Assembly: GCA_965197935.1 (NCBI GenBank)
Contig: CBDAOD010000003.1
Coordinates: 919,171-983,170, forward strand
Length of the DNA stretch: 64,000 nucleotides
Reading direction: 5' to 3'
From: Vicinamibacterales bacterium
GTDB lineage: Bacteria; Acidobacteriota; Vicinamibacteria; Vicinamibacterales; CAZQMT01
Of the stretch, positions 7,461 to 64,000 are shown piece by piece. Made by a program: the position numbers and the translations under genes. The notes under the pieces were generated by a model. The model was not told the DNA's origin, did no database searches, and saw only the letters and a program-made list of their open reading frames with translations. How positions within the stretch are numbered: the first letter of the stretch is position 1; every line of letters begins with the position of its first letter.

Positions 7461-8874
7461 TACTACTTTGTTAGATCCGCAAGTGCACCGACTTTAGCGC
7501 CTCGATGCGCTTCAGGTAGAACGGCCGTGGAGCAAAGAGGTACGCGGTGAAGATTTCCTGCACGATCGCGCGGGCCACTGGAAAGGTGAGCCCGGCGAGG
7601 TGCCGCCGCCGCTCGGCCTGCAGGAAGTTGTACGTCACGGCGGTGAGCACGACGTGATGGTGCCAGCCCGGGAACGTGCGGCCTTCGAAGTGATCCAACC
7701 CGAGGTGGGGCTTCAACTCTTGGTACTGCTGCTCGATGGCCCACCGCTGATGCGCGAGTCGGACGAGCTGCGGCCAGGAGGTGGTGGCCGGCAGGTTGAC
7801 GAAGAAGTATTTGGTCCGCGGCGTCGCGCCCGTGTCGCGTTCGGCCAGCAGCCACACCTCGGGGGCGAGCCGGCGGTCGCGCCAGTCGTGGGCCGGGGTC
7901 ACCCGCAGGGCCACACACTGGACCGTCCAGCGGCGCCCGCCGCGGCGGTTGCGCCAGCTGATGGGCCGCCACCGCGGCTGCGCCTTGGCGGCCTGGGCCA
8001 CCGTGTACGCCCGCCCGCCCGCCGCCAGGTCTGGCCGGGTGCGCGGGCGCCCCAGCCGGCCGCCCCGCCGGTGCCCGAGGCGCGGCCGCCCCAGGAACAC
8101 GGTCTGCGACGAGGAAATCCCCACCGCATAGGGGAGCCGCAACCGATGCCACATGGCCCGAAACAGGCCGGTATCGCCAAACTCCGCATCGGCCAGCACG
8201 CCGGTGCCGGTGAGGCCGCTGGCGCGCACCTGCCGGAGCAGGGTGAGCGCTTGGCGCCACTTCGCCTGCAACCGGACACCCCGGGGAAGCCGCGCCCGAT
8301 CGCGGGCGGCGTCGGTCAGCCACGCCTCGGGCACATAGAGCGCGGCCCCCAGCAAGTAGGCGCGCAGCCCGGTCCACAGCGCCGCGGTGACCGCCACTTG
8401 GCCATTGGCGACTTTCCCCACGGCCCCACAGTACTGGCGGGCCACCCCGACCGAGGACGTCCCTGGCTTGGGGAAACTCGTGCCAGCGAAGATCACCAGC
8501 CCTTCGCGTTCGGGCAGCACCGCCCGCAGGCAGCGCCAGACGCCGTCGGCACTCCACGGCGCATCGGTGATGAAGTGTTGGAACGCTTGATAGCCCCCGG
8601 GATCGGTCCCCCGCGCCAGCATCGCTTCCATCGACTTGCGCGGGCTGTCGCTGAGCAACCCCTGGACGTACCGGCGCAACGCCAGCTCCTGTGCGCGCTG
8701 GCCGAAGCACGCCTTGAAGGCCTCGAGCCATCTCATCAGGCGACGCAACTGCCCCACCGTGCGGCGGTCGTGCACTACCGCGCAGGGTCCCGAATTCGCC
8801 GGAAAAGTACAATGTCCTCAAATTAGATCGCTTGTCGGATCTCGCCCAAATTGTGCGATCTAAACAAAGTAGTA
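7461..8874 (-). mobile_element. IS701-family element, copy 1 (transposase 7471-8775)
   Basis: Terminal IRs TACTACTTTGTTAGATC, CTAG target duplication at 7457-7460 and 8875-8878; 434-aa transposase with SVGVARQY, VLADAEFG, RWAIEQ, GLDHFEGR. Confidence 0.95.
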
Positions 8875-8877
8875 CTA

Positions 8878-10014
8878 GTGTAGTGTCCCTGAAATACCAT
8901 TACACATCAACGACCTGCGTGCAATATAGGCGGGATGAATGATGCCGCCGCCGCTCTGTCCATGGCCGCGAAGGATCGGCGACTCCTGGAACAGTGGGCC
9001 CGTAGTACGTCGGCCCCGCATCGGGTAGTCATCCGCGCGAAGGCGTTGCTGCTGGCGACCGAGGGGGGTTCCAACAGCCGCATTGCCGCGACCGTGGACG
9101 TCAGCCGGCCGACCGTGCTGGCTTGGCGCGACCGGTTTGGAGAGGAGGGCGTTGATTCGGTGTTCGAGATGCGTGAGGGGCGCGGGCGCAAACCGACGAT
9201 CAGTGCGCGCAGGGTCAAAGCCATCGTCCACGCAACGTTGCACCGCACGCCACCGGGGGCGACCCCCTGGAGTTGTCGCACGATGGCGAAGGCGCAGGGG
9301 GTCAGTCGCTCGACCGTGCAGCGGATCTGGGACGCGCATGGCCTCCAGCCCCATCGAGTGGAGACGTTCAAGCTGTCGACCGATCCCGCGTTCGTGGAGA
9401 AGCTGACGGACGTCGTGGGGCTGTACATGAATCCGCCCGAGAAGGCCGTCGTGCTGTGTGTGGACGAGAAGAGTCACATTCAGGCGCTGGACCGGACGCA
9501 GCCCGGGCTGCCGATGAAGAAGGGCCGCTGTGGGACACTCACGCATGACTACAAGCGCCACGGGACAACGACCTTGTTCGCCGCGCTGAACATGCTGACC
9601 GGGCAGGTCATCGGCGAGTGCCACGGCCGGCATCGGCATCAGGAGTTCCTGAAGTTTCTTCGCCAACTCCACCGCGCGTTCCCCTCTCGCCTCGACCTCC
9701 ACCTCATTCTGGACAACTACGGCACGCATAAACATCCGACCGTGCGGGCCTGGCTGGCGGCCCATCCGCGCTTCACGCTCCACTTCACCCCTACCGGCGC
9801 ATCGTGGCTCAACCTCGTCGAGAGTTGGTTCAGCCAGCTCACGCAGAAACGCATCCGCCGCGGGGTGTTTTGCAGTGTCGACGAACTCGTCGCCGCCATC
9901 AACGATTACCTCCAGCGCTACAACGACAACCCCCAACCCTTTGTCTGGACCGCGACGGTCGATACGATTCTAGAGAAGGTTGGGAAGTGCAAAGTTATTC
10001 TTGGGACACACCAC
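8878..10014 (+). mobile_element. IS630-family element (transposase 8935-10017)
   Basis: HTH region, then VLCVDEKS, HDYKRHGTT, LILDNY, SWLNLVESWF. Imperfect IRs GTGTAGTGTCCCTGAAATA / GTGGTGTGTCCCAAGAATA; TA duplication at 8876-8877 and 10015-10016. Confidence 0.95.
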
Positions 10015-10017
10015 TAG

Positions 10018-11430
10018 TACTACTTTGTTAGATCGCACAATTTGGGCGAGATCCGACAAGTGATCTAATTTGAGGACATTGTACTTTTCCGGCGAATTCG
10101 GTACCCTGCGCGGTAGTGCAGGACCGCCGCACGGTGGGGCAGTTGCGTCGCCTGATGAGATGGCTCGAGGCCTTCAAGGCGTGCTTCGGCCATCGCGCAC
10201 AGGAGCTGGCGTTGCGCCGGTACGTCCAGGGGTTGCTCAGCGACAGCCCGCGCAAGTCGATGGAAGCGATGCTGGCGCGGGGGACCGATCCCGGGGGCTA
10301 TCAAGCGTTCCAACACTTCATCACCGATGCGCCGTGGAGTGCCGACGGCGTCTGGCGCTGCCTGCGGGCGGTGCTGCCCGAACGCGAAGGGCTGGTGATC
10401 TTCGCCGGCACGAGTTTCCCCAAGCCAGGGACGTCCTCGGTCGGGGTGGCCCGCCAGTACTGTGGGGCCGTGGGGAAAGTCGCCAATGGCCAAGTGGCGG
10501 TCACCGCGGCGCTGTGGACCGGGCTGCGCGCCTACTTGCTGGGGGCCGCGCTCTATGTGCCCGAGGCGTGGCTGACCGACGCCGCCCGCGATCGGGCGCG
10601 GCTTCCCCGGGGTGTCCGGTTGCAGGCGAAGTGGCGCCAAGCGCTCACCCTGCTCCGGCAGGTGCGCGCCAGCGGCCTCACCGGCACCGGCGTGCTGGCC
10701 GATGCGGAGTTTGGCGATACCGGCCTGTTTCGGGCCATGTGGCATCGGTTGCGGCTCCCCTATGCGGTGGGGATTTCCTCGTCGCAGACCGTGTTCCTGG
10801 GGCGGCCGCGCCTCGGGCACCGGCGGGGCGGCCGGCTGGGGCGCCCGCGCACCCGGCCAGACCTGGCGGCGGGCGTGCGGGCGTACACGGTGGCCCAGGC
10901 CGCCAAGGCGCAGCCGCGGTGGCGGCCCATCAGCTGGCGCAACCGCCGCGGCGGGCGCCGCTGGACGGTCCAGTGTGTGGCCCTGCGGGTGACCCCGGCC
11001 CACGACTGGCGCGACCGCCGGCTCGCCCCCGAGGTGTGGCTGCTGGCCGAACGCGACACGGGCGCGACGCCGCGGACCAAATACTTCTTCGTCAACCTGC
11101 CGGCCACCACCTCCTGGCCGCAGCTCGTCCGACTCGCGCATCAGCGGTGGGCCATCGAGCAGCAGTACCAAGAGTTGAAGACCCACCTCGGGTTGGATCA
11201 CTTCGAAGGCCGCACGTTCCCGGGCTGGCACCATCACGTCGTGCTCACCGCCGTGACGTACAACTTCCTGCAGGCCGAGCGGCGGCGGCACCTCGCCAGG
11301 CTCACCTTTCCAGTGGCCCGCGCGATCGTGCAGGAAATCTTCACCGCGTACCTCTTTGCTCCACGGCCGTTCTACCTGAAGCGCATCGAGGCGCTAAAGT
11401 CGGTGCAATTGCGGATCTAACAAAGTAGTA
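10018..11430 (+). mobile_element. IS701-family element, copy 2 (transposase 10116-11420)
   Basis: 1413 bp, same IRs as copy 1, CTAG at 10014-10017 and 11431-11434; inverted relative to copy 1. Confidence 0.95.
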
Positions 11431-35546: not shown

Positions 35547-35578
35547 TTGACTCCCGAGTCTCTTCCAGGGTTCATACT
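35547..35578 (+). promoter_or_regulatory. MerR-family-type promoter with long spacer
   Basis: TTGACT (35547-35552), 20-nt spacer CCCGAGTCTCTTCCAGGGTT, CATACT (35573-35578); weak dyad in the spacer. Confidence 0.55.
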
Positions 35579-35729
35579 GGTCTCAGCGCCGAGACCGGCA
35601 CACCTGGATGGGCACACCCGCCGAGGTGTCGGCGGCGCCGCCGGGCGACTGTCGTGGCCGTCGGGACTCTCGGTGAGCGATGGTCGCGATGCAGAGGCGC
35701 GACACGCGAACAATTGCGAGATCAGGAGC

Positions 35730-36146
35730 ATGTTCATCACTCGATCGGTGTGGGTGGGAGTCGTCGCACCCCTGGCGGCGGTCTTCACGTTCGTCGCAGT
35801 GGGCCGTAGTGAAGTGGACACGGCGAACGCGTCGCCGCAGGGGACCCCGGGGCACACCGTTGACGCCGGCGACGCGGGTGTCGCCGTGGAGACTCGAACC
35901 GTTGCGCTCCACATCGAAGGCATGACGTGAGGGGGGTGCCCCCTGGCCGTGCGCCAGGCTCTCCTGAATGTCGACGGCGTCGTCTCAGCAGAGGTATCGT
36001 TCGACGACAAGCGCGCCGAGGTCCGTTGCGACGCAGCGGTCGATGCTGCACTGCTGGTGCAAGCCGTCGAGGACGCCGGCTTTGAGGCTCGGGTCATCGA
36101 CACCGCCGACGACACGGCCAGCGGGGACCGCCGATCGTCCCGTTGA
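35730..36146 (+). CDS. Predicted selenoprotein: exported MerP-like HMA protein, motif GMT-U-GG-C (U67)
   Basis: AGGAG RBS and ATG 35730; hydrophobic N-terminus; LHIEGMT-TGA(35928-35930)-GGCPLAVRQALLNVDGVVSAEVSFDDKRAEV...LVQAVEDAGFEA, in frame to TGA 36146. Confidence 0.88.
35928..35964 (+). promoter_or_regulatory. SECIS-like hairpin
   Basis: Upper stem CCTGGC/GCCAGG (35942-35958) with loop CGTGC 17 nt after UGA; lower stem GGGGGG/CTCTCC. Confidence 0.65.
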
Positions 36147-36592
36147 GAGCGCCGGACGCCCGGGCGCAACAGACGCACAGGCACACCGCAAACGGTCGTC
36201 AGGAAGGGACGCTCTTGAACGACCCCTCCCCATGGGATCCGCGCGCTCTGAACGATCGTCTGCCGGGTGTCGCAAGCGCCGTCTCCGCCCTCCTCGCGGC
36301 CAGTTGCTGTCTCCTGCCGATCGCCTTGATCACCTTGGGGATCGCCGGGGCGGGCATCATGATGACGATGATGCGCTACGAGTGGCTGACACTTCCCCTC
36401 GGCGTGGGTGGCCTCGTGGGCGCCGCCGCCCTGTACGTCAGCAACCGTCGGCGGTGTGAAACGACCGGCTGCCGTTTTGTCGGACAGCGGTTCAACCAGG
36501 CGATGCTGGGGCTCGCTGCGCTGGTCGTGGCAGTGGCGCTATTGCTGAAGGTGTTCCCCGCGTGGACCGCGACGCTGCTACAGCAGCTCTGA
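36143..36592 (+). CDS. MerT-like heavy-metal transport membrane protein (start may be TTG 36215)
   Basis: Three TM helices, AASCCLLP in TM1, loop RRRCETTGC; same Cys layout as MerT. Confidence 0.8.
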   Translation: MRAPDARAQQTHRHTANGRQEGTLLNDPSPWDPRALNDRLPGVASAVSALLAASCCLLPIALITLGIAGAGIMMTMMRYEWLTLPLGVGGLVGAAALYVSNRRRCETTGCRFVGQRFNQAMLGLAALVVAVALLLKVFPAWTATLLQQL

Positions 36593-36604
36593 CGCGAGGG
36601 CGGC

Positions 36605-37453
36605 GTGCTGAGGCCTGACGAAGTCGCATGGATGGCTCTGGCCGCCGTCCTTTCGATGCCCCAGTCTTCGCCGGCCCAGATCGTGGCACCAGCCGGCCGA
36701 ACGCTGTTCAACCGATCGGTGATGCTTCGCAGTTTCGTGCGCGTCGATCACTTCATCGACACCGGACCGGGCGAAGAGACTCGTCGCCTCGTGAACCCGT
36801 ATGCGGTCGTGTGGGGCGTGTATCCCAACGTCAGCGTGACCCTGGTCACGCCCGTGGTCAGCCTGCGACGTCAGACCCCAGGCGGATCCGAGCGACCATC
36901 CCCGCTGACGAGCTTCGGCGATAGCAGCCTCCTGGCTCGCGTGGACGTGTGGCGCCGGCTCGTCCCGGGCGGGTACACGCGGCTCTCGCCGGAAGTCGGC
37001 GTCAAGATGCCCACCGGAGGAACGTTCGGCAGCGGATCGACCGACGCGATCGCCGGTTTGGTCCTGTCTCACGTGCGCGACCCGCATTGGTTGGTCGGTG
37101 ACGTTCAGTTCACCTACACCACGACCGGGGACGGTGACCTTCGCGCCGGCAATCGCTGGCGGTATGATTTCGCATATCTTCACCGTTTGCTCCCGCGAGA
37201 CGGATTGGGCATTCCGACCGTCTTGGCCGTCCTGGAGGTGAACGGTGAACACGGCCGGCACGCCCGCGCTGGCGATGTGCCGCTACCGAATAGCGGAGGC
37301 GATCTGGTGTTCCTCTCACCGGGTGTCGAGCTCATCACGTCGCGGCGGCTCGTCATCGAGTGCTCGGTGCCGATACCGATTCACCGCGATCTCAACGGAT
37401 CGCAGCTGGAACCGGCATGGAGCTTCATCGGGGGCGCGCGATGGCTGTTCTGA
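36605..37453 (+). CDS. Outer-membrane beta-barrel, transporter/MetA-pathway-like
   Basis: Signal peptide, GDSSLLARV, GVKMPTG..GSGSTD, NSGGDLVFLSPG, terminal RWLF. Confidence 0.7.
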   Translation: MLRPDEVAWMALAAVLSMPQSSPAQIVAPAGRTLFNRSVMLRSFVRVDHFIDTGPGEETRRLVNPYAVVWGVYPNVSVTLVTPVVSLRRQTPGGSERPSPLTSFGDSSLLARVDVWRRLVPGGYTRLSPEVGVKMPTGGTFGSGSTDAIAGLVLSHVRDPHWLVGDVQFTYTTTGDGDLRAGNRWRYDFAYLHRLLPRDGLGIPTVLAVLEVNGEHGRHARAGDVPLPNSGGDLVFLSPGVELITSRRLVIECSVPIPIHRDLNGSQLEPAWSFIGGARWLF

Positions 37454-38442
37454 GGTTCCAGGTGGTCGTTGTCTTGCTGGGAGGCTTCGTTGCATCTCTG
37501 ATGCTGGCCGACCACGGGCGGGCTGCCGGACCACCGTACGCCTCGGACGCGACGGACGGAGCCGCGTTGCCCCGGGCCGACCCGCACTACCGGACGGTGG
37601 GACGGTGGGGCGTGGCTGGCGAGCGCCCTGGTCAACTGAACGGTGTGCAGGGGATCGCGGTTGATTCGGCGGGCGAGGTGTACGTCGCAGACGCCGAGAA
37701 CTGCCGCATCCAGGTCTTCAGCCGCGAAGGGGAGTTTCGTCGATCGTGGGGCGAATGCGGGGAGGGCGAGGGCGAATTCATCAAACCAACCGACGTGGCG
37801 GTGGGGGTCGATGACGAGATCTTCGTCGTGGACTTCATGCTCGACCGGCTCCAGGTCTTCGACGGACAGGGAGCCTACCTGCGGGGGTGGGGTACCTCGG
37901 GCACCGGCCCGGGGGAGTTTTCGTCGCCGGTTGGAGTCGCAGCCGGTCGGGACAGGTCCGTCTATGTCGTCGAGTTCTACGGCCATACCATACAGAAGTT
38001 CTCCAGCGACGGGCTCTGGATGGCCACGTGGGGCGGCGAGGGACACGGTGAGGGACAGCTCTACTATCCGGCGAAGATTGGCCTGGGCCCGGACGGTGGT
38101 GTCTATGTGGCCGACGCACATAATGCCCGCATTCAACGGTTCGATCGCGAGGGCCGGTTCGTCGGTACCTGGGGTCAGGCTGGTACGTGGTACGGTCATC
38201 TCAACGATCCGGTAGACGTCGTCATCGCGCGCGACGGTTCGATGCATGTGGCCGACAGTGCGAATTTTCGTGTGCAGTGGCTGGCCGCCGATGGCAGCTA
38301 CATCGCGGAGTGGAAGTTGCCCGGAGAGACGGCCGGCCGGTTTCAGTCGCCGCAGGCGCTGGTGCAGGATGCGCAGGGCTATCTCTACGTGAGCGATACG
38401 GCTGGCAACCAGATCTACAAGCTGGAGGCGGTGCGACCATGA
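37441..38442 (+). CDS. Exported NHL-repeat six-bladed beta-propeller
   Basis: Repeated P..IAVD..G.VYVAD..N.RIQ.F units with WG..G.GPGEF linkers; start and stop overlap both neighbours. Confidence 0.92.
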   Translation: MAVLRFQVVVVLLGGFVASLMLADHGRAAGPPYASDATDGAALPRADPHYRTVGRWGVAGERPGQLNGVQGIAVDSAGEVYVADAENCRIQVFSREGEFRRSWGECGEGEGEFIKPTDVAVGVDDEIFVVDFMLDRLQVFDGQGAYLRGWGTSGTGPGEFSSPVGVAAGRDRSVYVVEFYGHTIQKFSSDGLWMATWGGEGHGEGQLYYPAKIGLGPDGGVYVADAHNARIQRFDREGRFVGTWGQAGTWYGHLNDPVDVVIARDGSMHVADSANFRVQWLAADGSYIAEWKLPGETAGRFQSPQALVQDAQGYLYVSDTAGNQIYKLEAVRP

Positions 38443-40205
38443 AGAGAGTGATCAGACATCTCGCGCGGGCGGGGCTCGCCAGCGTCACGACCGCGGTACT
38501 GCTACTCACGGCGGCTCCGGCAGTCGCCCAGGTGGATCAGGCATGGGTGCGCGTCGATGGTCTGACTTGACCGCTCTGAGCCTATGGGGTCGAGAAGGCC
38601 CTCCGACGCCTGGATGGCGTCGATCGTGTGACGGTGGATCTGAGAGCCGGTACGGCTGTCGTGCAGTCGGCGGAAGGGGAGGGGTTCGATCCGACCTCGA
38701 TCGCCACGGCGGTTCGAGACGCGGGATTCAGCGCCGAGCGGATCGATGTGACAGCCGTCGGCACCGTGGTGAATGAGGGTGGCGCCGCTCGACTGGAGAT
38801 GACCGCTCCATTGACGGCTCTCCGCCTGCGGGACGGAACAAAGACCGCACAGCTGAAGGAACGCCGCGGTCTTCTCCAGGGGCCGCTACGTCTCACGGGC
38901 CGGCTCGAGCCGGCCCGTGAGGGGCAGCCTGCGCTCCTGGCCCTCGAGACCTGGGAGCCGGTTGATGACGGGAGTGCGAGAAGGGATCGATCAGATCCGA
39001 GGTGGCAGGCGGAGGCTTCGCCACCCGCGATCGGCGAGCTGGAGATGCTCGCGTCGCCGGCTGGACCGAAGAGCGGGCAGCCGCAGCTCCACCGACCCCA
39101 GGAGGGCCGCGTCATCCTGAGCTGGCTCGAGCCCGGCGCGTCGGCCAAGACCCGGCTGCGTTTCGCGGAGCGTGACGGGAGCGGCTGGTCGGCTCCGCGG
39201 ACGGTAGTGGATGGCGAAGAGTTCTTCGTGAACTGGGCGGACGTCCCATCCGTGGTTCGGCTGGCCGACGGCCGCCTCGCGGCGCACTGGCTGAACAAGA
39301 GCGGACCGTCCACCTATGCCTACGATGTCCGACTGAGGATATCGGATGACGGCGGCGGGGTGTGGTCGTCCGCGCTCACGCCCCACCGTGACGGAACGCT
39401 GACCGAGCACGGCTTCGCGTCGCTGTTCGACTGGGCTCCAGGCGGCCTGGGCCTCGTGTGGCTCGACGGCCGGGAGATGAGCGCCGAGAGCGGGCCCGGG
39501 CGGGACGACAGAGGCTCGATAACCTTGCGGGCGACGACGCTATCGCCCGATCTCGAATTCGCCCCTGAGGTTCTCCTCGATGGCCGCGTCTGTGAGTGTT
39601 GTCCGACGGCGGCGGTGCAGACCGACCAGGGAGTGGTGGTCGCCTATCGTGATCGCAGCGACGAGGAAGTACGCGACATCGCTACGGTTCGGTATCACAA
39701 CGGGAGCTGGAGCGACCCCGTCATCGTTCATCGGGATGGCTGGCAGATTCGCGGATGTCCGGTGAACGGTCCGGCGCTGGCGAGCGACGGTCAGATCGTC
39801 GCTCTGGCCTGGTTCACGGCCGAGGCCGGCGACGGTCGGGTCCAGGTGGCGTTCTCCCAGGACGCAGGCGCCTCGTTCGGTCGGCCGATCCGCATCTCCA
39901 GCGACGTGGCGCTCGGGCGTGTCGACCTCACCTTGCTCCCGGACCGGTCGGCGCTCGTGACCTGGATCGGCTCCCGAGCCGGAACGTCGGAGTTCCTGCT
40001 CCGACGGGTGGCACGTTCGGGCGAGATGGGGGCTCCCCGGTCGATCGTGGCCATCGACTCGAGCCGCGCGAGCGGCGTGCCGCGCCTGGTGCGGTCGGGT
40101 GACGAGCTCGTATTCGCGTGGACCGAGACCGGGGCGGTCTCGCGCGTGCGCACGGCGGTGGCAGCGCTCGTCGAGACGAAAGTGTCCCCGACCCGGTCGC
40201 ACTAG
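38439..40205 (+). CDS. Predicted di-selenoprotein: signal peptide, HMA domain (GLT-U-PL-U; U44, U47) and BNR/sialidase-like propeller with CECC and GCPVNGP
   Basis: ATGA overlap with the NHL stop; VRVDGLT-TGA(38568)-PL-TGA(38577)-AYGVEKALRRLDGVDRVTVDL is in the same frame as track ORF 38628-40205; 588 codons. Confidence 0.85.
38568..38622 (+). promoter_or_regulatory. Two tandem SECIS-like hairpins after the UxxU codons
   Basis: GGGGTC-GAGAA-GGCCCT (38586-38602) and CGACGCC-TGGAT-GGCGTCG (38604-38622). Confidence 0.5.
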
Positions 40206-44698: not shown

Positions 44699-45900
44699 CT
44701 AGGGCGACGTCGGCCAGACCACGCCCTGATCGCGGGACGTGACCGGGCCCAGACCCTTGTAGACGAACTTCTGGAGCCGCTTTCCTTCGTAGGTTTCTGT
44801 CGTGTAGATGTTGCCCTTCGAATCGGTCGCGATGCTGTGCACGCCGTAGAAGGCGCCGGCCTGTCGGCCGCCGTCCCCGAAGCTCGTCAGGACTTCGAGC
44901 GACTCTCGCTCGATGATGTACACCTTCTCGTTCAGCCCATCCGCCACGTAGATGTACCGTTGCGCGTCGTCACGCGAGAACGCGAGATCCCAGACGGATC
45001 CGGAGCCGCGGGAGTTCTTCGCCACGAACTGCTCCTTGACGAAGGTGCCGTCCTTCTGGAACACCTGGATCCTGTCGTTGGCACGGTCGCAGACGTAGAT
45101 CAACCCGTCGTTCGAAACCTCGGCACAGTGCACCGGGCTCCTGAACTGCTGAGGCGGGGGAGCACTCGGGTCGTAGAGACCGATGTCGCTGTCGTCCGGC
45201 CGGTTGCCATACGCTCCCCAGTACCTCTTGAGCTCGCCGGTGTCCATGTCGACCACCGCCACGCGACGGTTGCCGTACCCGTCTGCGAAATAGGCCTCGT
45301 TGGCCTCCGTGTCGAACGAGACCTTGGCCACCCGCGAGTAGTGCGTGCGGCTGTTGCTGTCGATGCCTTGTCCCGCCTCTCCCACCTGCAGGAGGAATCG
45401 ACCGTCACGCGTGAATTTCAGGACGTGTGAATCCCCTGGCCGTTGCCGCCGATCCAGACGTTCTCCTTGTGATCGATCGTGATGCCGTGGTTCGACACCG
45501 GCCACGTGTATCCTTCCCCGGGCCCGCCCCAGTGCCCGACGAGGTTCCCCTCCGGATCGAATTCGAGTGCCTGCGGCGCCGGCACGCAGCATTGCTCGGC
45601 AATCGGTGGATCGAGCGAGGCCGGGATCTCGTTCGCGCCGAGCGTGTCCACCGAGCCACGGTGCACGATCCAGACATGGTCCCGTGCATCGACTCCCACC
45701 CCGATCGCCGACCCGAGCACCCAGTGGTTCGGCAAGGGCTTGGGCCAGAATGGATCGACCTCGAACATGGGAGCCTGGCCCCCCTGGGCTCCGGCGACGG
45801 TCGCCCTGTCCAGCATGGCCTGGCCGACTCCCAGCGCCGCGATTGTGACGATGCCGCCCGCGGCGATCAGGAGACGTCGTTGGTGCGTGGGGCGCTGCAT
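44699..45900 (-). CDS. NHL-repeat protein (PAL-like), 1-nt deletion in a G run near 45433
   Basis: FEVDPFWPKPLPNHWVLG, then DSHVLKFTRDG, ADGYGNRR, CDRANDRIQVF in the next frame. Confidence 0.85.
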
Positions 45901-46194
45901 GCTGTCCCTCCCCTGAGTGACTGTGTGTCCGTGTCGCGAAGGGTGCCATGGAACGGCCGCGAGCGCAAGCGTGTGGAGAGAGGCGGTGGTGCGCATGTGA
46001 ACCACCGGCCCTGCGTGGCATGATGACTCACCCGAGGGCACTCGGGCGCCCACGACGCGCTCTACGTGGGCACCAGCAACCGGGATGGCCGACGGGATCC
46101 CCTCCCGGGAGACGACCGGGTGCTGCGGATCGCGCCGGCGGGACGTTGAACTCCTCCAGTTTGTCAGGTTCGCTCGTTGTGGGGCGGAGCGGCG

Positions 46195-46249: not shown

Positions 46250-47662
46250 TACTACTTTGTTAGATCCGCAAGTGCACCGACTTTAGCGCCTCGATGCGCT
46301 TCAGGTAGAACGGCCGTGGAGCAAAGAGGTCCGCGGTGAAGATTTCCTGCACGATCGCGCGGGCCACTGGAAAGGTGAGCCCGGCGAGGTGCCGCCGCCG
46401 CTCGGCCTGCAGGAAGTTGTACGTCACGGCGGTGAGCACGACGTGATGGTGCCAGCCCGGGAACGTGCGGCCTTCGAAGTGATCCAACCCGAGGTGGGGC
46501 TTCAACTCTTGGTACTGCTGCTCGATGGCCCACCGCTGATGCGCGAGTCGGACGAGCTGCGGCCAGGAGGTGGTGGCCGGCAGGTTGACGAAGAAGTATT
46601 TGGTCCGCGGCGTCGCGCCCGTGTCGCGTTCGGCCAGCAGCCACACCTCGGGGGCGAGCCGGCGGTCGCGCCAGTCGTGGGCCGGGGTCACCCGCAGGGC
46701 CACACACTGGACCGTCCAGCGGCGCCCGCCGCGGCGGTTGCGCCAGCTGATGGGCCGCCACCGCGGCTGCGCCTTGGCGGCCTGGGCCACCGTGTACGCC
46801 CGCACGCCCGCCGCCAGGTCTGGCCGGGTGCGCGGGCGCCCCAGCCGGCCGCCCCGCCGGTGCCCGAGGCGCGGCCGCCCCAGGAACACGGTCTGCGACG
46901 AGGAAATCCCCACCGCATAGGGGAGCCGCAACCGATGCCACATGGCCCGAAACAGGCCGGTATCGCCAAACTCCGCATCGGCCAGCACGCCGGTGCCGGT
47001 GAGGCCGCTGGCGCGCACCTGCCGGAGCAGGGTGAGCGCTTGGCGCCACTTCGCCTGCAACCGGACACCCCGGGGAAGCCGCGCCCGATCGCGGGCGGCG
47101 TCGGTCAGCCACGCCTCGGGCACATAGAGCGCGGCCCCCAGCAAGTAGGCGCGCAGCCCGGTCCACAGCGCCGCGGTGACCGCCACTTGGCCATTGGCGA
47201 CTTTCCCCACGGCCCCACAGTACTGGCGGGCCACCCCGACCGAGGACGTCCCTGGCTTGGGGAAACTCGTGCCAGCGAAGATCACCAGCCCTTCGCGTTC
47301 GGGCAGCACCGCCCGCAGGCAGCGCCAGACGCCGTCGGCACTCCACGGCGCATCGGTGATGAAGTGTTGGAACGCTTGATAGCCCCCGGGCTCGGTCCCC
47401 CGCGCCAGCATCGCTTCCATCGACTTGCGCGGGCTGTCGCTGAGCAACCCCTGGACGTACCGGCGCAACGCCAGCTCCTGTGCGCGCTGGCCGAAGCACG
47501 CCTTGAAGGCCTCGAGCCATCTCATCAGGCGACGCAACTGACCCACCGTGCGGCGGTCGTGCACTACCGCGCAGGGTACCGAATTCGCCGGAAAAGTACA
47601 ATGTCCTCAAATTAGATCACTTGTCGGATCTCGCCCAAATTGTGCGATCTAACAAAGTAGTA
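46250..47662 (-). mobile_element. IS701-family element, copy 3 (transposase 46260-47564)
   Basis: 1413 bp, same IRs, CTAG at 46246-46249 and 47663-47666. Confidence 0.95.
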
Positions 47663-53097: not shown

Positions 53098-54237
53098 CTA
53101 CTTCGCGAGAACGAGCGGCTTGCCGACGAGCTTGCCTGGATCGGCGCCCGGTTTCGGGACGAACTTGTTCACCCATCCGCCGTCCCAGCTGGCGACATAG
53201 ACGTTGCCATCCTGGTCCACGTCGAGCTGGTGCGGGCGCGACAGGCCCCCCGCAAAGCCTCCCCGCGTCCCTCCGTACGCGCCCCAGTGGTACTCGAGCT
53301 CGCCGTCCCGGCTGTACTTGAGCATGCGGTTCAGTCTCGCCGAGATCACCCAGACCGCGTCGTGCTCGTCGATGAAGACGCCAACGGGATCGGAGATGTC
53401 GGGCCATTCCTCGATGAACTCACCGTCCTCCGTGAAGATCTGAATGCGGTTGTTGGTCCGGTCGCCGACGTAGACGCGGTGATCCCGGTCGACCGCGACG
53501 CCGTGAACGAGGTCGAACTGCCCAGGGCCGCTCCCGAGCTCCCCCCACTCCATCACGTACTCGCCGCCCGCGTTGTACTTGACGATGCGCGAGTGCCAGT
53601 ACCCGTCGCCGAGATAGAAGCTGCCGTCGGGGAGGAAGGCGAGCACCGCCGGGTCACCGTAGGTGAAGGGACCGGGGTGCGGGTTTGCCCGCGCCTCTGC
53701 CCGGCTCGTCGGGTGGTTGGGGTCGACGAGCCGCATCACCAATCCACTTCCGTCGTTGGTGAACTTGAGGATCTGCATGTTGACCCCCCTGCCGCCACCG
53801 CGCTCGACGACCCAGACGTGGCGCTCCGGATCGTAGGGACTGATGTACACCTGGTGGGGCTTGTTGAGGATCGAGTCCCACTGCGTCCATCTCTCCACGA
53901 TGGCGCCGGTCCGGTCGGCGACCACGAGGTAGTTCGTGCCGCCCTCCCGCTCTTGCCCTTCAGCGTTTCGGTCCCCCCACACCGCCACGATGATCCGGTT
54001 TGGGTTGTCCACCGCGATGCCCGACACCTGCCCCCAGGTCCACGGTCCCTCGTGGTCGGGCGCCGGCTTCCACCAATTCTCGACGGCCTCGTATTCACCG
54101 GTCCTCTCGTCTCCACCCTTCATGATCGCTGCCTGCGATCCCGATTGCGGCTCGGCCTGGCTCTCGACGGCGTAGGCCGAGAGCATCGCCACCGCGGCGG
54201 CGAGGACAGGGGCCACACGCATACGCTCCGGTCTCAT
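53098..54237 (-). CDS. NHL-repeat protein (PAL-like)
   Basis: GAGGAGG RBS, WWKPAPDH, DGYWHSRIVKY, GPGQFDLVHGVAVD, PHQLDVD. Confidence 0.88.
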   Translation of the reverse strand: MRPERMRVAPVLAAAVAMLSAYAVESQAEPQSGSQAAIMKGGDERTGEYEAVENWWKPAPDHEGPWTWGQVSGIAVDNPNRIIVAVWGDRNAEGQEREGGTNYLVVADRTGAIVERWTQWDSILNKPHQVYISPYDPERHVWVVERGGGRGVNMQILKFTNDGSGLVMRLVDPNHPTSRAEARANPHPGPFTYGDPAVLAFLPDGSFYLGDGYWHSRIVKYNAGGEYVMEWGELGSGPGQFDLVHGVAVDRDHRVYVGDRTNNRIQIFTEDGEFIEEWPDISDPVGVFIDEHDAVWVISARLNRMLKYSRDGELEYHWGAYGGTRGGFAGGLSRPHQLDVDQDGNVYVASWDGGWVNKFVPKPGADPGKLVGKPLVLAK

Positions 54238-54464
54238 GATGCCTCCTCTTTGGAAGGGCTTCCGAGCAACGTGCTTGTTCACCCCGGTCGTCCCCGCAGA
54301 GCCTTCGCCGCCAGCAGCTTCACGTGCGCGCCGCCTCGCACCGACGGAGCCGTCGTCGCCGGGATGGCGCCATCGTCACGCCCTGACTCTGCCAGGGAAG
54401 CCGACCCGTGTCGACGCCGCAGCGCCGCACTCGATTGGTCGCGCTGGTCACGACCTGGGCTCGA

Positions 54465-56441: not shown

Positions 56442-57434
56442 TACTACTTTGTTAGATCGCACAATTTGGGCGAGATCCGACAAGTGATCTAATTTGAGGA
56501 CATTGTACTTTTCCGGCGAATTCGGGACCCTGCGCGGTAGTGCACGACCGCCGCACGGTGGGGCAGTTGCGTCGCCTGATGAGATGGCTCGAGGCCTTCA
56601 AGGCGTGCTTCGGCCAGCGCGCACAGGAGCTGGCGTTGCGCCGGTACGTCCAGGGGTTGCTCAGCGACAGCCCGCGCAAGTCGATGGAAGCGATGCTGGC
56701 GCGGGGGACCGATCCCGGGGGCTATCAAGCGTTCCAACACTTCATCACCGATGCGCCGTGGAGTGCCGACGGCGTCTGGCGCTGCCTGCGGGCGGTGCTG
56801 CCCGAACGCGAAGGGCTGGTGATCTTCGCTGGCACGAGTTTCCCCCAGCCAGGGACGTCCTCGGTCGGGGTGGCCCGCCAGTACTGTGGGGCCGTGGGGA
56901 AAGTCGCCAATGGCCAAGTGGCGGTCACCGCGGCGCTGTGGACCGGGCTGCGCGCCTACTTGCTGGGGGCCGCGCTCTATGTGCCCGAGGCGTGGCTGAC
57001 CGACGCCGCCCGCGATCGGGCGCGGCTTCCCCGGGGTGTCCGGTTGCAGGCGAAGTGGCGCCAAGCGCTCACCCTGCTCCGGCAGGTGCGCGCCAGCGGC
57101 CTCACCGGCACCGGCGTGCTGGCCGATGCGGAGTTTGGCGATACCGGCCTGTTTCGGGCCATGTGGCATCGGTTGCGGCTCCCCTATGCGGTGGGGATTT
57201 CCTCGTCGCAGACCGTGTTCCTGGGGCGGCCGCGCCTCGGGCACCGGCGGGGCGGCCGGCTGGGGCGCCCGCGCACCCGGCCAGACCTGGCGGCGGGCGG
57301 GCGGGCGTACACGGTGGCCCAGGCCGCCAAGGCGCAGCCGCGGTGGCGGCCCATCAGCTGGCGCAACCGCCGCGGCGGGCGCCGCTGGACGGTCCAGTGT
57401 GTGGCCCTGCGGGTGACCCCGGCCCACGACTGGC
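56442..57434 (+). mobile_element. IS701-family element, copy 4, 3'-truncated
   Basis: CTAG at 56438-56441 and intact left IR; identity with the other copies stops after CACGACTGGC at 57434. Confidence 0.93.
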
Positions 57435-59820
57435 CAGTCTGGCCGCCACGTTCGGCCGGGGGGCAATGACCAACCACTGGAAGGACATCAAGAACGCCGA
57501 TGTCGTCCTGGTGATGGGAGCGAACCCGGCGGAGAACCACCCCTGCGGTTTCAAGTGGGCCGTCGAGGCGCGTGACCACCGCGGCGCCAAGCTGGTCACC
57601 ATTGACCCGCGCTTCACGCGGACTTCGGCGGTCGCCGACAAGCACCTGCAGATCCGGCCGGGCGCCGACATCGCGGTGCTCGGCGGGTTCATCCGTCACA
57701 TCCTCGAGCACGACCTGTATCACGCCGACTACGTCCGTGCGCACACCAATGCGTCATTCATCGTGACGGGGGAGTTTGGCTTCGAGGATGGCCTGTTTGC
57801 CGGATTCGACGAGGCGGCCAGCGCCTACGACAAGACAGCCTGGGACTACCAGCGGGGCGCCGACGGGTACGTGCGCCGGGACCCGTCGCTCGAGGACCCG
57901 CAGTGCGTCTTCCAGCTCCTGAGGCGGCACTACAGTCGCTACACCCCTGACGTCGTCGCGCAGATCGCCGGCTGCTCGGAGGAAGACTTCCGCCGGATGG
58001 CCGACATCATCTGCTCGACCGGGACCGGCCGACCGGGTCGGGACGATCATGTACGCCGTCGGCTGGACGATGCACACGGTGGGCAGCCAGATCATCAGGA
58101 CGGCGGCGATCGTCCAGCTGTTGCTCGGCAACATCGGGCGCCCCGGCGGGGGCATCAACGCGCTGCGCGGTCATGCCAACGTGCAGGGTGCCACCGACCA
58201 TGCGATCGTCGCCGACATCCTTCCGGGTTATCTCAAGATCCCGACGCCTGGCCAGACCTCGCTCCGTGAGCACTTCGACGACTCGACGCCGAAGCCCCTC
58301 GTCCCGGACACGGTCAACTACTGGGGGAATTACCCGAAGTTCTATGTCTCGCAGATGAAGGCGTGGTTCGGCGAGCACGCGACCGAGGCGAACGACTTCG
58401 CCTACGACTACCTGGGCAAGCCAGCCGACGATGCGACCTGGCTGAGCATCTGGAACGAGGCGTTCCAGGGCCGGCTCGAGGGTTTCATCGCGCTCGGGTT
58501 CAACCCACTCCTGGCCGGTCCCGATGTGGCGCGTCTGCTGCAGGCGATGTCCAGGCTGAAGTGGAAGGTGGTCATCGATCCCTTCATGCTCGATTCGGCC
58601 GAGTTCTGGAAGGCGCCCGGCATGAACCCGGCGGAGATCGACACCGAGGTCCTGTATCTGCCCAGCACGCACTGGATCGAACGCGATGGTTCGTTCACCA
58701 ACAGCGGCCGGTGGGCGCAGTGGAAGGAGCAGGCGATCGATCCGCCGATCGGCGTGCGGTCAGATACCTGGATCCTGTCCGAGCTGTTCTGGCGCGTGAA
58801 GGAGCTCTATCAGGCGGAGGGGGGCGCGTACGACGACCCGATCCAGTACCTGACCTGGGGCTACTTGAACCCGCGCGAGCCGACGCTGGTCGAGCTGGCG
58901 CAGGAGATCAACGGCCGCGATCTGACCACCGGCCGCTTGCTGCGTCGTTCGGCGAGCTTCGGGACGACGGCACGACCGCCTCGGGCAACTGGCTCTACAG
59001 CGGGAGCTACACCGAGGCGGGGAACCAGATGGCCCGGAAGGGAACCGCCGACCCGACCGGGATGGGTATGCACCACGGCTGGGCCTTCAGCTGGCCGCTC
59101 AACCGGCGCGTGCTCTACAACCGCGCCTCCGCCGACGCGGAGGGTCATCCCTGGGATCGAAGCCGCGCGGGCATCGCCTGGGACGGACGGGAGTGGGTTG
59201 GCGACGTGCCCGACTACGGCCGGACGACGCCGCCCGGCGGACCGGGCGCCTTCATCATGACGGAGGATGGCGTGGCCCGGCTGTTCAGCAGCCACCTCGC
59301 CGACGGGCCGTTCTCCGAGCACTACGAGCCGGCCGAGAGCCCGACGACCAACACCCTGCACGAGAACGTGCCAGTGAACCCGGTCGTCAGGTGGTACGAC
59401 GGCGTTCGCGACACGCTCGCCCAGGCGGGCGACGACTTTCCGTACGCCTGCACCGTGTATCGCGTCGTCGAGCGCGAGCACTTCGTGACCAGCAACGTCC
59501 CGTATCTGGTCGAGGCGATGCCCGACTTCTTCGTCGAGGTGCCCGACGGGCTGGCGCGGGAGAAGGACATCCCCAACGGCAGTCGTGTCCGTGTCTGGTC
59601 GAAGCGGGGCGAGGTCGAGGGCACGGCGGTCGTCACCAAGCGGATCCGGCCGCTCACGGTCAACGGTCGAACGGTCTGGACGATCGGCATCCCGGTCCAC
59701 TGGGGCTTCGTGGGGCTGACGACCGGATCGATGGCCAATCAGCTCGCGCCGTTCATCGGTGACGCCAACACCCGGTGCCCCGAGTTCAAGGCGTTCTGCG
59801 TGAATCTCGAGAAGGCCTGA
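57431..59820 (+). pseudogene. fdnG: Formate dehydrogenase-N alpha subunit, lacking roughly 200 N-terminal aa, with two indels (~58027, ~58942)
   Basis: SLAATFGRGAMTNHW, NPAENHP, DPRFTRTS, YAVGWT, NALRGHANVQGATD, FSEHYEP, PVHWGF, PEFKAF. Confidence 0.9.
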
Positions 59821-60464: not shown

Positions 60465-63124
60465 CTGTTGAAATTTGAAGCGGCGGCTCTTCACTGGTCG
60501 TGCTATACGACCGGTGACGAAACCGAGGTGCAAGCCTCCCAGTAAGGAGCCGCCATGAAGAAGCAGTCTCGCACAGTCCCTCGCCGTCGCCAATCGGTAT
60601 CCCCGACGCCACGGCACCTTCCGTTGGTCGATATCCTCATTGATACGCAGGCCGCGCTCCAGGAGCTGGTCGTCGCGTCTGGCCTGAAGGTACTCGAAGC
60701 CATGCTGGAAGAGGATCGGGCCGCCGTCTGTGGGCCACGGTATGCGCATCAACCTGCGCGCCAGGCGTATCGAACGGGGCATACGCCGAGTCAGGTCGTG
60801 CTGGGCGGGCGGAAGGTGGCGATTCGTCGGCCCCGTGCGCGGCGCGCCGGCGAGGAGGTTCCGTTGCCAACGGCCCGGGCATTCGCGAATGCGGACCCGC
60901 TGAACCGGCGCGTGGTCGACCAGATGCTGATCGGTGTGGCGACCCGCCAGTATGCGCGGAGTCTGGAACCGCTCGGCGCCGACGTCACCACGGGGGGCAC
61001 GAGCAAGAGTGCGGTCAGTCGACGCTTTGTCGAGAGGTGGACCCCGAAATTCGGACAGGTTGCTAAGGTGGGATCCAGACCACAGAGAAGGAGTCTGGAA
61101 TGTCCCGAAAGAGACGGAACTACCCGGCTGAGCTGAAGGCGAAAGTCGCGCTGGAGGCTCTCCGCGAAGAGGCAACGATGACCGAGCTGGCCTCTCGGTA
61201 CGACGTTCACCCGAATCTGATCGCGAACTGGAAGAAGAAGGCACGCGAACACGTGCTGGCGAGCTTCGCAGGCAAGCACGAGTACCAGGAGGCCTCTCGA
61301 GCGGTCGAGATCAAGGAGTTGCGAGCGAAGGTGGGCGAGCTCGTGATCGAGTGGGATTTTTTGTCCAAGGCCTTCGGTCGGTGAGCCACGGCCGGAGGGA
61401 AACGATGGTCGATCCCGACCATGCCGCGCTCAGCATCACACGCCAGTGTGGCCTGCTCTCGATCGCCCGCTCGTCGTTCTACTACGAGGGCAAGGGCGAG
61501 AGCCCGCTGAATCTGCGGCTGATGCGGCGCATCGATGAGCAGTTTCTGGAGACGCCCTTCTACGGCTCGCGGCAGATGACGCGCTGGCTGCTGCGCCAAG
61601 GCGCCAGGGTCAGCCGCAAGCGCGTCCGGCGCCTGATGCGGCGCTTGGGCCTGGAGGCGATCTTCCAACGGCCCAGGACGTCTCAGCCGCACCCGGCGCA
61701 CAGGGTCTATCCCTACCTGTTGCGCGATCTGCCGATCACGCGGCCGAACCACGTGTGGTGCACGGATGTTACCTATATCCCGTTGCAGCGAGGCTTTCTG
61801 TACCTCGTCGCGGTGATGGATTGGGCGAGCCGCAAGGTGCTGTCCTGGCGTCTGTCCAACACGCTCGATGCGCACTTCTGCGTCGAGGCCTTGCACGAGG
61901 CGCTCGAGCACTATGGCCCTCCGGAGATCTTCAACAGCGACCAGGGCAGCCAATTCACCAGCGTCGACTTCACCGACGTGCTCACGGAGGCTGGCATTCG
62001 CATCTCAATGGACGGCAAGGGCCGCTGGATGGACAACGTGTTCATCGAGCGGCTGTGGCGATCGCTCAAGTACGAGTGCGTCTACCTGTCTGAGTTCGCG
62101 ACCGGCGCCCAGGCCCGGACCGGCATCGGCTGGTGGATGGACTTCTACGACCGACGCCGGCCCCACTCGGCGCTCAACGACCGGACGCCGGCCGAGGCGT
62201 ATACTGACGACGGGGCTGACCGGAGCCCGGGGCTATGCCCCGGTTCCCGTCAGCCCAAGGTCGCTTGAATCATGAACCGGATTCCACCTTAGCTGTGACG
62301 AAAACCTGTCCAAAGGATGGGGTCCACCTCTGTCGCGCAGACCCAGGCGCAGCTGGATGCGTGGCGGGCGACGCCGCTCGATGCGCTGGACCTGGTGGGG
62401 CTACTGATTGATGGCGTGCACGTGGGTGGACACTGTATCGTTGTCGCCCTAGGCATCGATAAAATGGGCGCGAAACACCCGCTCGGCCTGTGGGAAGGGG
62501 CCACGGAGAACGCGACGGTCTGTCAGGGGCTCTTGACCAATCTCGGCCGCCGCGGGCTGCGCACCGACCGGAGCCTGCTGGTGATCGTCGATGGCGCGAA
62601 GGCCCTCGACACGGCCGTGACCCAGACATTCGGGCGCGCCGCGCTGGTGCAGCGGTGTCAGGTCCATAAGGGCCGGAACATCTTGGAGCATCTCCCTGAG
62701 GCACAGCGGCCGTGGGTGAAGGCGGTCCTCACGCGTGCCTACACGAACAGCCACGTCAAGACGGCCAAGCGTCTGCTGCAGGACCTGGCGCGGCGCTTGG
62801 ACACTGACTACCCGAGTGCGGCCACGAGCGTGCGGGAAGGGCTCGACGAGACGCTGACCGTGCTCGGCTTGGGTCTGTCGGAGCGTCTCCAACGATCGCT
62901 CGCCACCACGAACGCCATCGAGAGTCTCCTCAGCCGAACGCGCCACGTGCAGCGCCATGTGAAACGCTGGCGCGGCGGGACGATGGTGCTGCGCTGGGTG
63001 GCCGCCGGGGTGCTCGAAGCGGCGAAGGGGTTCCGTCGGGTGCAAGGATGTCAAGATATGCCCGCGCTGGTCGCTGCCCTCCTGGCACGCGACGCGCGGT
63101 TAGGACTCGGGGAGTCGTCAGAGA
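60450..63124 (+). mobile_element. IS256-family element, interrupted by IS3 and lacking its right end
   Basis: Left end GGGATGTCCC at 60450; N-half 60555-61032 (TSKSAVSRRF) and C-half from 62332 (LLIDG, LWEGATEN, IVDG, QRCQVHK, TTNAIES) rejoin as RFVAQTQAQL. Confidence 0.9.
61033..62331 (+). mobile_element. IS3-family element (orfA 61100-61384, orfB to 62268)
   Basis: IRs AGAGGTGGACCCC...GGACAGGTT; GTCG duplication at 61029-61032 and 62332-62335; TTTTTT slip site at 61357-61362; WCTDVTY, SDQGSQF, DNVFIERLW. Confidence 0.95.
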
Positions 63125-64000
63125 TGGCGGGCCGAGGCGATGCGCGGATACTTCGAGCGCCTGGAGAACTGCCGGTATCGCCGGGAGGGCATCGGGAATC
63201 GATCCCGCCACGGCTTCGACGGGTGGCTCACCACCGAGCGGGCGATCCCCAAGAGCGCGCTGAGGGACGGCGACCTGGTCAAGGTGCTGCTCCAGGCCTC
63301 CGAGAACGCCATGGACGAGCTCGGACAGCCGTGGCGGCAGATCGGCTGGGCGCTGGAGTCGCACGGCGATCCGAATGACTGGCGGCTCGTACAGGACGAC
63401 GCGGTCGGCGTACGGTTTCTGCCGCTCACCACGCGCGACCATATCCGCGTCGGAACGCGAGAGTTCTTACGCCAGGTCGAAGCGGAGCATCCGGCCCGGC
63501 TCACGATCGAGCTCGACGCCCTGGCCACGCGCGTCGTGCTCGACGATCGGCAGCGTGCCGTCGGCGTCGACTATCTCAAGGGTGGGCGTTTGTACCGAGC
63601 GCACGCGCAACCGAGCGCGGAGGCTGGCGAGGCCAGGAGGGCGCGCGCCACGCGAGAGGTCATCCTGGCCGGCGGTGCGTTCAACACGCCCCAGCTCCTC
63701 ATGCTGTCCGGCATCGGCCCGCCCGGTGAGCTGGGGCGCGCCGGGATCGACATCCCCGTGCGGGTGCCGCTCAACGGCGTCGGGAAGAATCTGCAGGATC
63801 GGTACGAGGTGTCCGTCGTCAACCGGATGAAGCAGGACTGGCGGGCACTCGAAGGCGCTCGATTCGAGAAGGGCGACCCGCTCTACGAGAGCTGGGCCCG
63901 CGAGCGTGACGGCGTGTACACGACGAACGGCGCCGTCCTGGCTCTCGTGGCGAAGTCGGCCCAGAACCCGCCGCTGTCCGATCTGTTCTGCTTTGCCCTG
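63125..64000 (+). pseudogene. GMC oxidoreductase internal fragment: 5' end replaced by IS256, runs off window
   Basis: Read manually: WRAEAMRGYFERLENC...EVILAGGAFNTPQLLMLSGIGP...GVGKNLQDRYE; no N-terminal GxGxxG FAD motif before the junction. Confidence 0.85.

Follow-up and report, generated by a model that had tools for sequence, protein, structure and literature searches.

The locus described here raises the question of why three in-frame TGA codons stand exactly where metal-binding proteins carry their ligand cysteines, and what the operon containing them does. It lies in a window (the whole stretch of DNA analyzed, 64,000 nt) of a Vicinamibacterales bacterium genome (GCA_965197935.1, contig CBDAOD010000003.1, positions 919,171 to 983,170 of the forward strand) and consists of five closely packed genes on the same strand, G1 to G5, at 35730-40205 (+). 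One of the TGAs is in G1 and two are in G5, each on a metal-ligand Cys position of an HMA domain, and all five reading frames are intact past them. A first-pass annotation had read the genes as encoding a MerP-like HMA protein, a MerT-like permease, an outer-membrane barrel, an NHL propeller, and an HMA-BNR protein, and these identities were borne out by Pfam and NCBIfam matches, motifs, and translations. Its reading of the three TGAs as selenocysteine (Sec) codons on ligand positions is supported by the conservation of the UGA, Cys-form homologs, and covarying hairpins resembling the Sec insertion sequence (SECIS). The operon probably relays a thiophilic divalent metal, Hg(II) above all, through the envelope and is built on a MerP/MerT-type uptake pair with selenocysteine as a periplasmic ligand.

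The translation of G1 has a hydrophobic N terminus with a signal peptide and a ligand loop that reads HIEGMT-TGA-GGCPLAVRQAL, and the gene adjoins the MerT-like gene G2. With Cys put for U, the protein matches Pfam HMA (PF00403) at 52 bits (cutoff, 24.8), and it shares 40 to 72% identity with homologs in which the same TGA is read through. When one genome per species was scanned with the aligned G2 homologs, 35 loci were retrieved, which belong to Vicinamibacterales, to other Acidobacteria, and to a single Gemmatimonadetes genome; a G1 homolog lies directly upstream of the G2 homolog in 31 of them, with a conserved open frame past its TGA (VEGMT-TGA-GGC). TGA occupies the first ligand codon in all 33 G1-type genes read. 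These 33 genes include 30 distinct acidobacterial genes, with the window's among them, as well as one from Gemmatimonadetes (locus L014) and one from a gammaproteobacterium (L088). The gammaproteobacterial merP lies within a merR/merT/merP/merA cluster and reads NMT-TGA-NFC. No Cys-form gene was found inside the G1 clade among the 33 genes read, and canonical MerP carries Cys at the TGA position (NMTCxxC).

The 15 bases beginning 12 nt past the G1 TGA are near-invariant, third codon positions included, and the flanking third positions vary. The SECIS-like hairpin predicted there (Table 1) is 100% paired in 30 distinct sequences, with RNAalifold and a separate pair count in agreement, and the window's own copy has 6 of 6 pairs and the consensus loop. 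Compensatory changes occur in three of the six pairs (CG to GC, UA, and AU), some of which force coupled amino acid changes (L/Q to V/H). The L088 hairpin has an unrelated stem (ACUUAC/GUAAGU), but its loop CGUGC, stem length, and 11-nt spacer are the same as those of G1; with this sequence included, four of the six pairs covary, and the observed values were reached by no shuffle. The same columns in 28 distinct Cys-form HMA genes of canonical mer operons are 36% pairable, which is the chance level. The hairpin was picked out by the alignment and not by single-sequence folding, and neither Rfam nor tRNA scans of the locus detected any RNA, whether of a SECIS family, tRNA-Sec, or another kind. 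Its geometry is that of the Escherichia coli fdhF SECIS, which likewise has an 11-nt spacer.

The other two TGAs are in the HMA loop of G5 (VRVDGLT-TGA-PL-TGA-AYGVEKAL), a 588-aa multidomain protein that matches PF00403 at 42.4 bits, again with Cys put for U. A standalone 190-aa homolog of the HMA part of G5 (G5N), encoded at locus L038, has TGA at both ligand positions (GMF-U-GL-U). Every other G5N relative read is of the Cys form, with CPFC or CPYC, i.e., GL(S/T)CPFCAYGLEKKL or a close variant. Two candidate SECIS hairpins, A and B, are predicted in both the window's G5 and L038, with compensatory differences between them, and both are intact in the window; they are absent from the three Cys-form G5N genes that were folded. 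Because only two sequences have hairpins A and B, the SECIS support is weaker for G5 than for G1. A search with the part of G5 beyond the second TGA returned no homologs, and the middle domain has a low-confidence structure model. Cys-form homologs and a conserved gene order, which the first-pass annotation had suggested looking for, were found on both counts, the former in canonical MerP and the G5N relatives and the latter in the G1-G2 pair and in L038 (see below).

Two simpler origins of the in-frame TGAs were considered and rejected. TGA is an ordinary stop codon in this genome and the genome is not recoded, because G1 to G4 end in TGA (G5 ends in TAG). Sequencing error or a pseudogene is ruled out as the source by the conservation and the covariation.

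G2, the partner of G1, starts with TTG behind a GGAAGG ribosome-binding site. With its topology read off the sequence by eye, it has ASCCLLP in hydrophobic segment 1 and a CETTGC pair (C81/C86, CxxxxC) in an Arg-rich, positively charged loop between segments 2 and 3. These features fit the functional definition of MerT (a membrane protein of three helices that has CC in the first and another Cys pair in a loop predicted to be cytoplasmic), and the family matches of G2 are to MerT only, all of them weak. All four Cys residues are invariant in 26 homologs, which are about 122 aa long, 56 to 71% identical, and abundant in marine assemblies. The idea of a MerP-to-MerT relay, put forward at first pass, is judged to be supported.

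The genes around the pair in its relatives bear on the metal. The usual order is a MerR-family regulator, a DF-family or CopZ-N-terminal-type gene, Sec-MerP, and the MerT-like gene. The gene between merR and Sec-MerP encodes a DF-family (seleno)protein (NF049942, 99 bits) in L010 (7292-7597), L038 (7247-7549), and nine other loci and a CopZ-N-terminal-type iron-sulfur metallochaperone (NF047645, 116 bits) in L013 (7177-7563), L019, and L020; both families have known selenoprotein members, and neither gene is present in the window. In the Gemmatimonadetes locus L014, the genes for Sec-MerP, the MerT-like protein, and MerA are consecutive, and this MerA scores 549 bits on TIGR02053 (cutoff, 454). 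A merR/merP/merA set lies just upstream of the pair in L037, and merR and merA lie by the related Sec-merP in L088. Because the relatives set the module behind MerR-type regulators, sometimes beside a genuine mercuric reductase, these gene contexts make a mercury-type divalent soft metal the best-supported substrate, ahead of copper or nickel. Other arrangements were also seen. The most abundant marine relative, L002, has the order NHL gene, Sec-MerP, and MerT-like gene, and in L026 and L027, the MerT-like gene occurs without a MerP-like gene and is preceded by an ArsR-family regulator instead.

A consensus, TTGACYCTGGAG-N5-TCCAGRGTKCATACT, was built from the promoters preceding merR in six relatives. 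The long-spacer promoter of the window, recognized at first pass, fits this consensus with two mismatches, is the sole match in the window (0 expected in 100 shuffles), and lies 150 nt from G1, which supports its homology to the MerR-type promoters of the relatives. A standard promoter scan gave no match at this site because it allowed spacers of 16 to 18 nt only. The dyad in the relatives is perfect or near-perfect (ACYCTGGAG-N4-CTCCAGRGT). A remnant of merR or of a DF-family gene was sought between the window's promoter and G1, and none was found. In L002, the region upstream of the Sec-MerP gene (6500-6630) has a short remnant of a MerR-like helix-turn-helix, IYRIGEVAARTTLSKDTLRYYD followed by a stop; that lineage, like the window's, has therefore lost merR.

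Two classes of operator occur in the related loci. The CTGGAG...CTCCAG dyad, the class of the window, is found in L016 (6541), L038 (6771), and L010 (6744), and the CCGTAC...GTACGG dyad, which we take to be the Tn21 mer operator, is found in L013 (6561/7036), L019 (6697), L037 (4795), and L098 (5817); in L037, it occurs together with the canonical set of merR, merP, and merA. Each class may respond to a different metal. Nearly all of the aligned regulators of the relatives have Cys at all three Hg(II)-ligand positions of MerR, including the one at the start of the dimerization helix, and Cys at that position marks divalent-ion sensors in the MerR family.

The three remaining genes extend the operon toward the outer envelope. 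G3 scores 18.6 bits on PF13557 (Phenol_MetA_deg), which is below the cutoff of 22. A metagenome scan with this barrel returned 40 loci, and in about 20 of these its direct neighbors, in variable order, are an NHL propeller and an HMA protein of the G5N type. L095, L098, and L104 have a MerR-family gene next to this HMA/barrel/NHL module, L108 has one no more than about 2 kb away, and MerA is on the module's contig in L098 and L106. Barrel and NHL genes of the G3 and G4 types also lie about 5 kb upstream of the L088 mer cluster. The order in L038 is merR, DF, Sec-MerP, MerT-like, barrel, UxxU-HMA, and NHL, i.e., the window operon without the BNR part. Because of this order and of the recurrence of G5N-G3-G4 in metagenomes, the window locus is read as the union of two recurrent modules, the Sec-MerP/MerT-like pair and HMA/barrel/NHL. 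Two more NHL-repeat proteins, distantly similar to G4, are encoded elsewhere in the window, at 44699-46021 (-) and 53098-54282 (-).

The last part of G5 belongs to a different kind of protein. At 46 to 55% identity, residues 200 to 588 align with the mature region of secreted, standalone proteins about 410 aa in length. This family has more than 7,000 matches at about 50% identity in many phyla and is annotated only as sialidase or glycoside hydrolase. Its invariant motifs are CECC and CPVNGP, which include four invariant Cys residues. The fusion in G5 is a clean in-frame swap, with the HMA protein and a 21-residue linker in place of the BNR signal peptide. The propeller model has a pLDDT of about 90, and its best fold matches in the PDB are sialidases and lectins at 10 to 15% identity, i.e., generic propellers; a PDB sequence search with the propeller found nothing, and the score on BNR_2 is 30.7 bits, just under the cutoff of 31.4. 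The gene contexts of the standalone BNR homologs are mixed, with copper genes alongside in one case, and we therefore draw no function for the family. In one lineage (L131, 5001-9376), the propeller gene precedes a multicopper oxidase gene and copB.

These elements suggest the following course of events. SelB would read the hairpins and insert selenocysteine. The metal would pass the outer membrane via G3 and be captured by the diselenolate HMA domain of G5, with the G4 NHL and BNR propellers as partners. It would then be handed to the selenolate/thiolate site of G1, next to the CC pair of G2, and next to the cytoplasmic Cys pair of G2. The next recipient in the relatives would be the thiol protein, of the DF family or the CopZ-N-terminal type, and for some of them mercuric reductase as well; in the window genome, the cytoplasmic partners and merR would have been lost or would lie outside the locus. 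What we infer in this account is that Sec is inserted, which way the transfer runs, the passage through G3, the role of G4 and the propeller, and the identity of the metal. A more tentative extension, which we hold possible, is that the HMA-plus-beta-domain protein, the barrel, and the NHL protein together make up a capture module of the outer envelope, not described before, that handles Hg(II)-type metals upstream of MerP/MerT and is often under MerR control. In marine Vicinamibacterales, this module would have been joined to Sec-MerP and here upgraded to a diselenolate HMA domain tethered to a Cys-rich propeller, giving a relay tuned to the very low metal levels of seawater.

Table 1. Features of the operon and its upstream region in the window
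Feature	Position	Strand	Basis
MerR-type promoter/operator remnant, TTGACT-N20-CATACT; left dyad half degenerate	35547..35578	+	Consensus of merR-operon promoters in relatives
G1, exported MerP-like HMA predicted selenoprotein, 138 aa, motif GMT-U67-GG-C70	35730..36146	+	Translation, Pfam HMA, homologs
In-frame TGA of G1, predicted Sec67	35928..35930	+	TGA conserved in G1 genes; Cys in canonical MerP
SECIS-like hairpin of G1, 6-bp stem CCUGGC/GCCAGG, loop CGUGC, 11 nt past the UGA	35942..35958	+	RNAalifold, covariation
G2, MerT-like inner-membrane protein, 125 aa, three hydrophobic segments	36215..36592	+	Weak MerT matches, Cys pattern
G3, probable outer-membrane beta-barrel; signal peptide ending in PAQ, C-terminal RWLF	36605..37453	+	PF13557, family alignment, synteny
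G4, exported or membrane-anchored NHL-repeat beta-propeller, 333 aa	37441..38442	+	NHL (113 bits), synteny
G5, signal peptide, HMA (U44-P-L-U47), second domain of about 90 aa, 21-aa linker, sialidase-like BNR propeller	38439..40205	+	Translation, Pfam, model
In-frame TGAs of G5, predicted Sec44 and Sec47	38568..38570, 38577..38579	+	TGA at both positions in L038
Candidate SECIS hairpins A (38586-38602) and B (38604-38622; 7-bp stem, loop UGGAU)	38586..38622	+	Folding, L038
BNR/sialidase-like propeller of G5	39036..40202	+	Same as the mature region of widespread secreted proteins about 410 aa in length

Several results weigh against this relay, some of them on the side of the metal. G1 scores 59.8 bits on the MerP equivalog TIGR02052 (cutoff, 92.55), and its top-scoring family is NF041115, a UxxU metal-binding (seleno)protein, at 77.4 bits, under the 95-bit cutoff. 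On the same two models, G5 scores 34.1 and 35.5 bits, respectively, and G2 is below the cutoffs of both MerT models (Pfam PF02411, 19.6 bits versus 32.9; NCBIfam, 22 bits versus 150). No merA, merR, cytoplasmic partner, or further HMA gene is present in the 64-kb window, as the first-pass annotation had stated for merA, and most of the acidobacterial loci have no MerA within 8 kb. The operator class of the window presumably resembles the ZntR operator and not the Tn21 mer operator, NCBIfam scores fail to separate the relatives' regulators from ZntR or CueR (all are below the cutoffs), and synteny and fold are the sole basis of the functions proposed for G3, G4, and the BNR domain. The alternative that best survives, unlikely as we consider it, is that an operon of this architecture handles a coinage metal in the monovalent state (Cu(I), Ag(I), or Au(I)), acting like CopZ as a chaperone in the periplasm or as an uptake system, or else handles Zn, Cd, or Pb. 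The missing merA genes and the similar scores of the regulators on the MerR, ZntR, and CueR models are compatible with it, as are the scores of both HMA domains on CopZ models, which about equal those on MerP, the standalone BNR homolog directly upstream of copA-copB, and the regulator of the L095 module, which lacks the first Cys. However, the G2 permease resembles MerT and nothing else, a genuine MerA follows the same gene pair directly in L014 and stands beside it in L037 and L088, and the divalent-sensor Cys is kept in nearly all of the relatives' regulators. The first-pass view that scavenging of Cu or Ni is as plausible as mercury handling did not hold up, given the bona fide MerA beside some relatives and the three-Cys divalent-metal signature of their MerR-type regulators; nickel is not a known ligand of HMA CxxC sites.

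The other unfavorable results concern the state of the locus. The merR and DF-family genes that follow the same promoter in the relatives are missing from the window, and the operator is degenerate in its left half (CCCGAG, 2 mismatches). No selA, selB, selC, or selD was found in the 64-kb window or in the relatives' loci examined. At least seven insertion-sequence copies are present, an unusually high load for 64 kb: four copies of one element (DDE_5 transposase, 434 aa) at 7471-8775 (-), 10116-11420 (+), 46260-47564 (-), and 56540-57469 (+, truncated) and further transposase genes of the IS630-like (DDE_3), IS3-like (rve), and IS256-like (Mutator) types at 8935-10017, 61100-62268, and 62317-63378. 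A 5'-truncated pseudogene of a formate dehydrogenase alpha subunit (FdnG-like) at 57414-59800 (+) with 59775-60464 matches E. coli FdnG from residue 198 onward (E = 3e-73), abuts the truncated insertion-sequence copy, and is followed by an intact 4Fe-4S beta subunit gene. It begins near the Sec codon, with a TGA at 57414 and then a CCCC run and a frame change, and it occupies three frames with two frameshifts. This remnant hints that the lineage used selenocysteine, and it also hints at a region that is decaying or carries assembly indels. Given the many insertion sequences and the formate dehydrogenase pseudogene of the region, the locus may be decaying, and the G5 fusion was seen in the window genome alone, with no other fused HMA-BNR form ranked among the propeller matches. 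A decaying remnant, in which the TGAs terminate and the operon is nonfunctional after the loss of merR, the cytoplasmic partner, and possibly the Sec machinery, is nevertheless improbable: the five frames are intact past the TGAs with tight or overlapping junctions (gaps of 68 nt for G1-G2 and 12 nt for G2-G3, and overlaps of 13 nt for G3/G4 and 4 nt, ATGA, for G4/G5), the G1 hairpin is fully paired with the consensus loop and both G5 hairpins are intact, and the fusion replaces the BNR signal peptide cleanly and in frame.

Very improbable is a reading of the UGAs by another route, for example by a suppressor tRNA that inserts Cys or a different residue, or a redox rather than metal-binding role of the U/CxxC sites. 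The unusual tRNAs, potential nonsense suppressors, reported in Acidobacteria (PMC5389517) and the use of UxxC as a typical selenoprotein redox motif are outweighed by a position-specific, covarying hairpin of SECIS geometry that follows the UGA and is absent in Cys forms, TGA stops in G1 to G4 themselves, and an HMA fold and motif whose genomic partners are metal genes.

The relay on a Sec-MerP/MerT-like pair would be a clear, well-supported case, predicted from sequence, of selenocysteine as a metal ligand instead of a redox catalyst, with a SECIS element defined via covariation over three phyla. An abundant marine acidobacterial lineage carries the Sec-MerP gene unseen, because gene callers cut it at the UGA; the first-pass expectation that annotation pipelines truncate selenoproteins of the G1 and G5 types was correct. 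The recurrent three-gene envelope module tied to MerR and mer genes may be a missing outer-membrane step of mercury handling. The Hg(II) affinity and exchange kinetics of the UxxC and UxxU sites are accessible via recombinant proteins.

Systems of this kind have been recorded before. The selenoproteins "Mercuric transport protein MerP" and "Putative mercuric transport protein" are catalogued (PMC2398784; PMC9312934), and both appeared in a 2008 ocean survey. Later reviews list a selenoprotein MerT, an HMA-bearing cation-transporting ATPase with UxxC, and the UxxU metal-binding protein NF041115; NCBIfam also holds a MerT/CopZ fusion selenoprotein, NF045683, and a small set of MerT relatives are selenoproteins (Haft, bioRxiv 10.1101/2022.07.06.499078). 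Because selenoprotein MerP, MerT, and UxxU HMA proteins are in the literature and NCBIfam, together with the HMA-ATPase, the description of the operon as a new system at first pass was overstated. We found no literature description of a Vicinamibacterales Sec-MerP clade with a defined SECIS, of the HMA/barrel/NHL module, of their union, or of a UxxU-HMA-propeller fusion, and a literature search pairing mer genes with NHL repeats returned nothing that describes the module. Like the catalogued selenoprotein metal proteins, all of which are computational predictions, the window proteins have Sec for a ligand Cys in HMA- or MerT-type proteins and UxxC or UxxU motifs. They differ in that G2 has no Sec, unlike the catalogued selenoprotein MerT; the UxxU domain of G5 is within a larger multidomain protein, unlike NF041115; and the barrel, NHL, and BNR operon partners are absent from the descriptions of the catalogued proteins.

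The SAO system (Haft, bioRxiv 10.1101/2022.07.06.499078) is likewise a multigene, multiselenoprotein system with a proposed role in envelope trafficking of a mercury-like metal and with Sec at the presumed metal contacts, but it consists of unrelated families (ABC transporter and MerB-like lyase) with CU motifs in anaerobic Firmicutes, and no homology to the window genes was seen. With CopZ/CopA-type systems, the window proteins share the HMA fold, a CxxC-type loop, and CopZ-model scores comparable to their MerP scores; unlike these systems, they are exported rather than cytoplasmic, have no P-type ATPase, and have a MerT-like membrane partner. Compared with MerP/MerT of the Tn21/Tn501 type, the operon differs in the predicted selenocysteine as the first ligand of G1, the order of merP-like and then merT-like genes, the CxxxxC cytoplasmic pair, the scores of G1 and G2 below the curated MerP and MerT cutoffs, and a locus without merA and merR. 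The likeness to the same operons lies in an exported HMA protein with a GMTxxxC loop beside a three-helix membrane protein, in the helix 1 CC and the cytoplasmic Cys pair of G2, and, in the relatives, in MerR-type control via a long-spacer promoter and, in L014, in MerA directly next to the pair.

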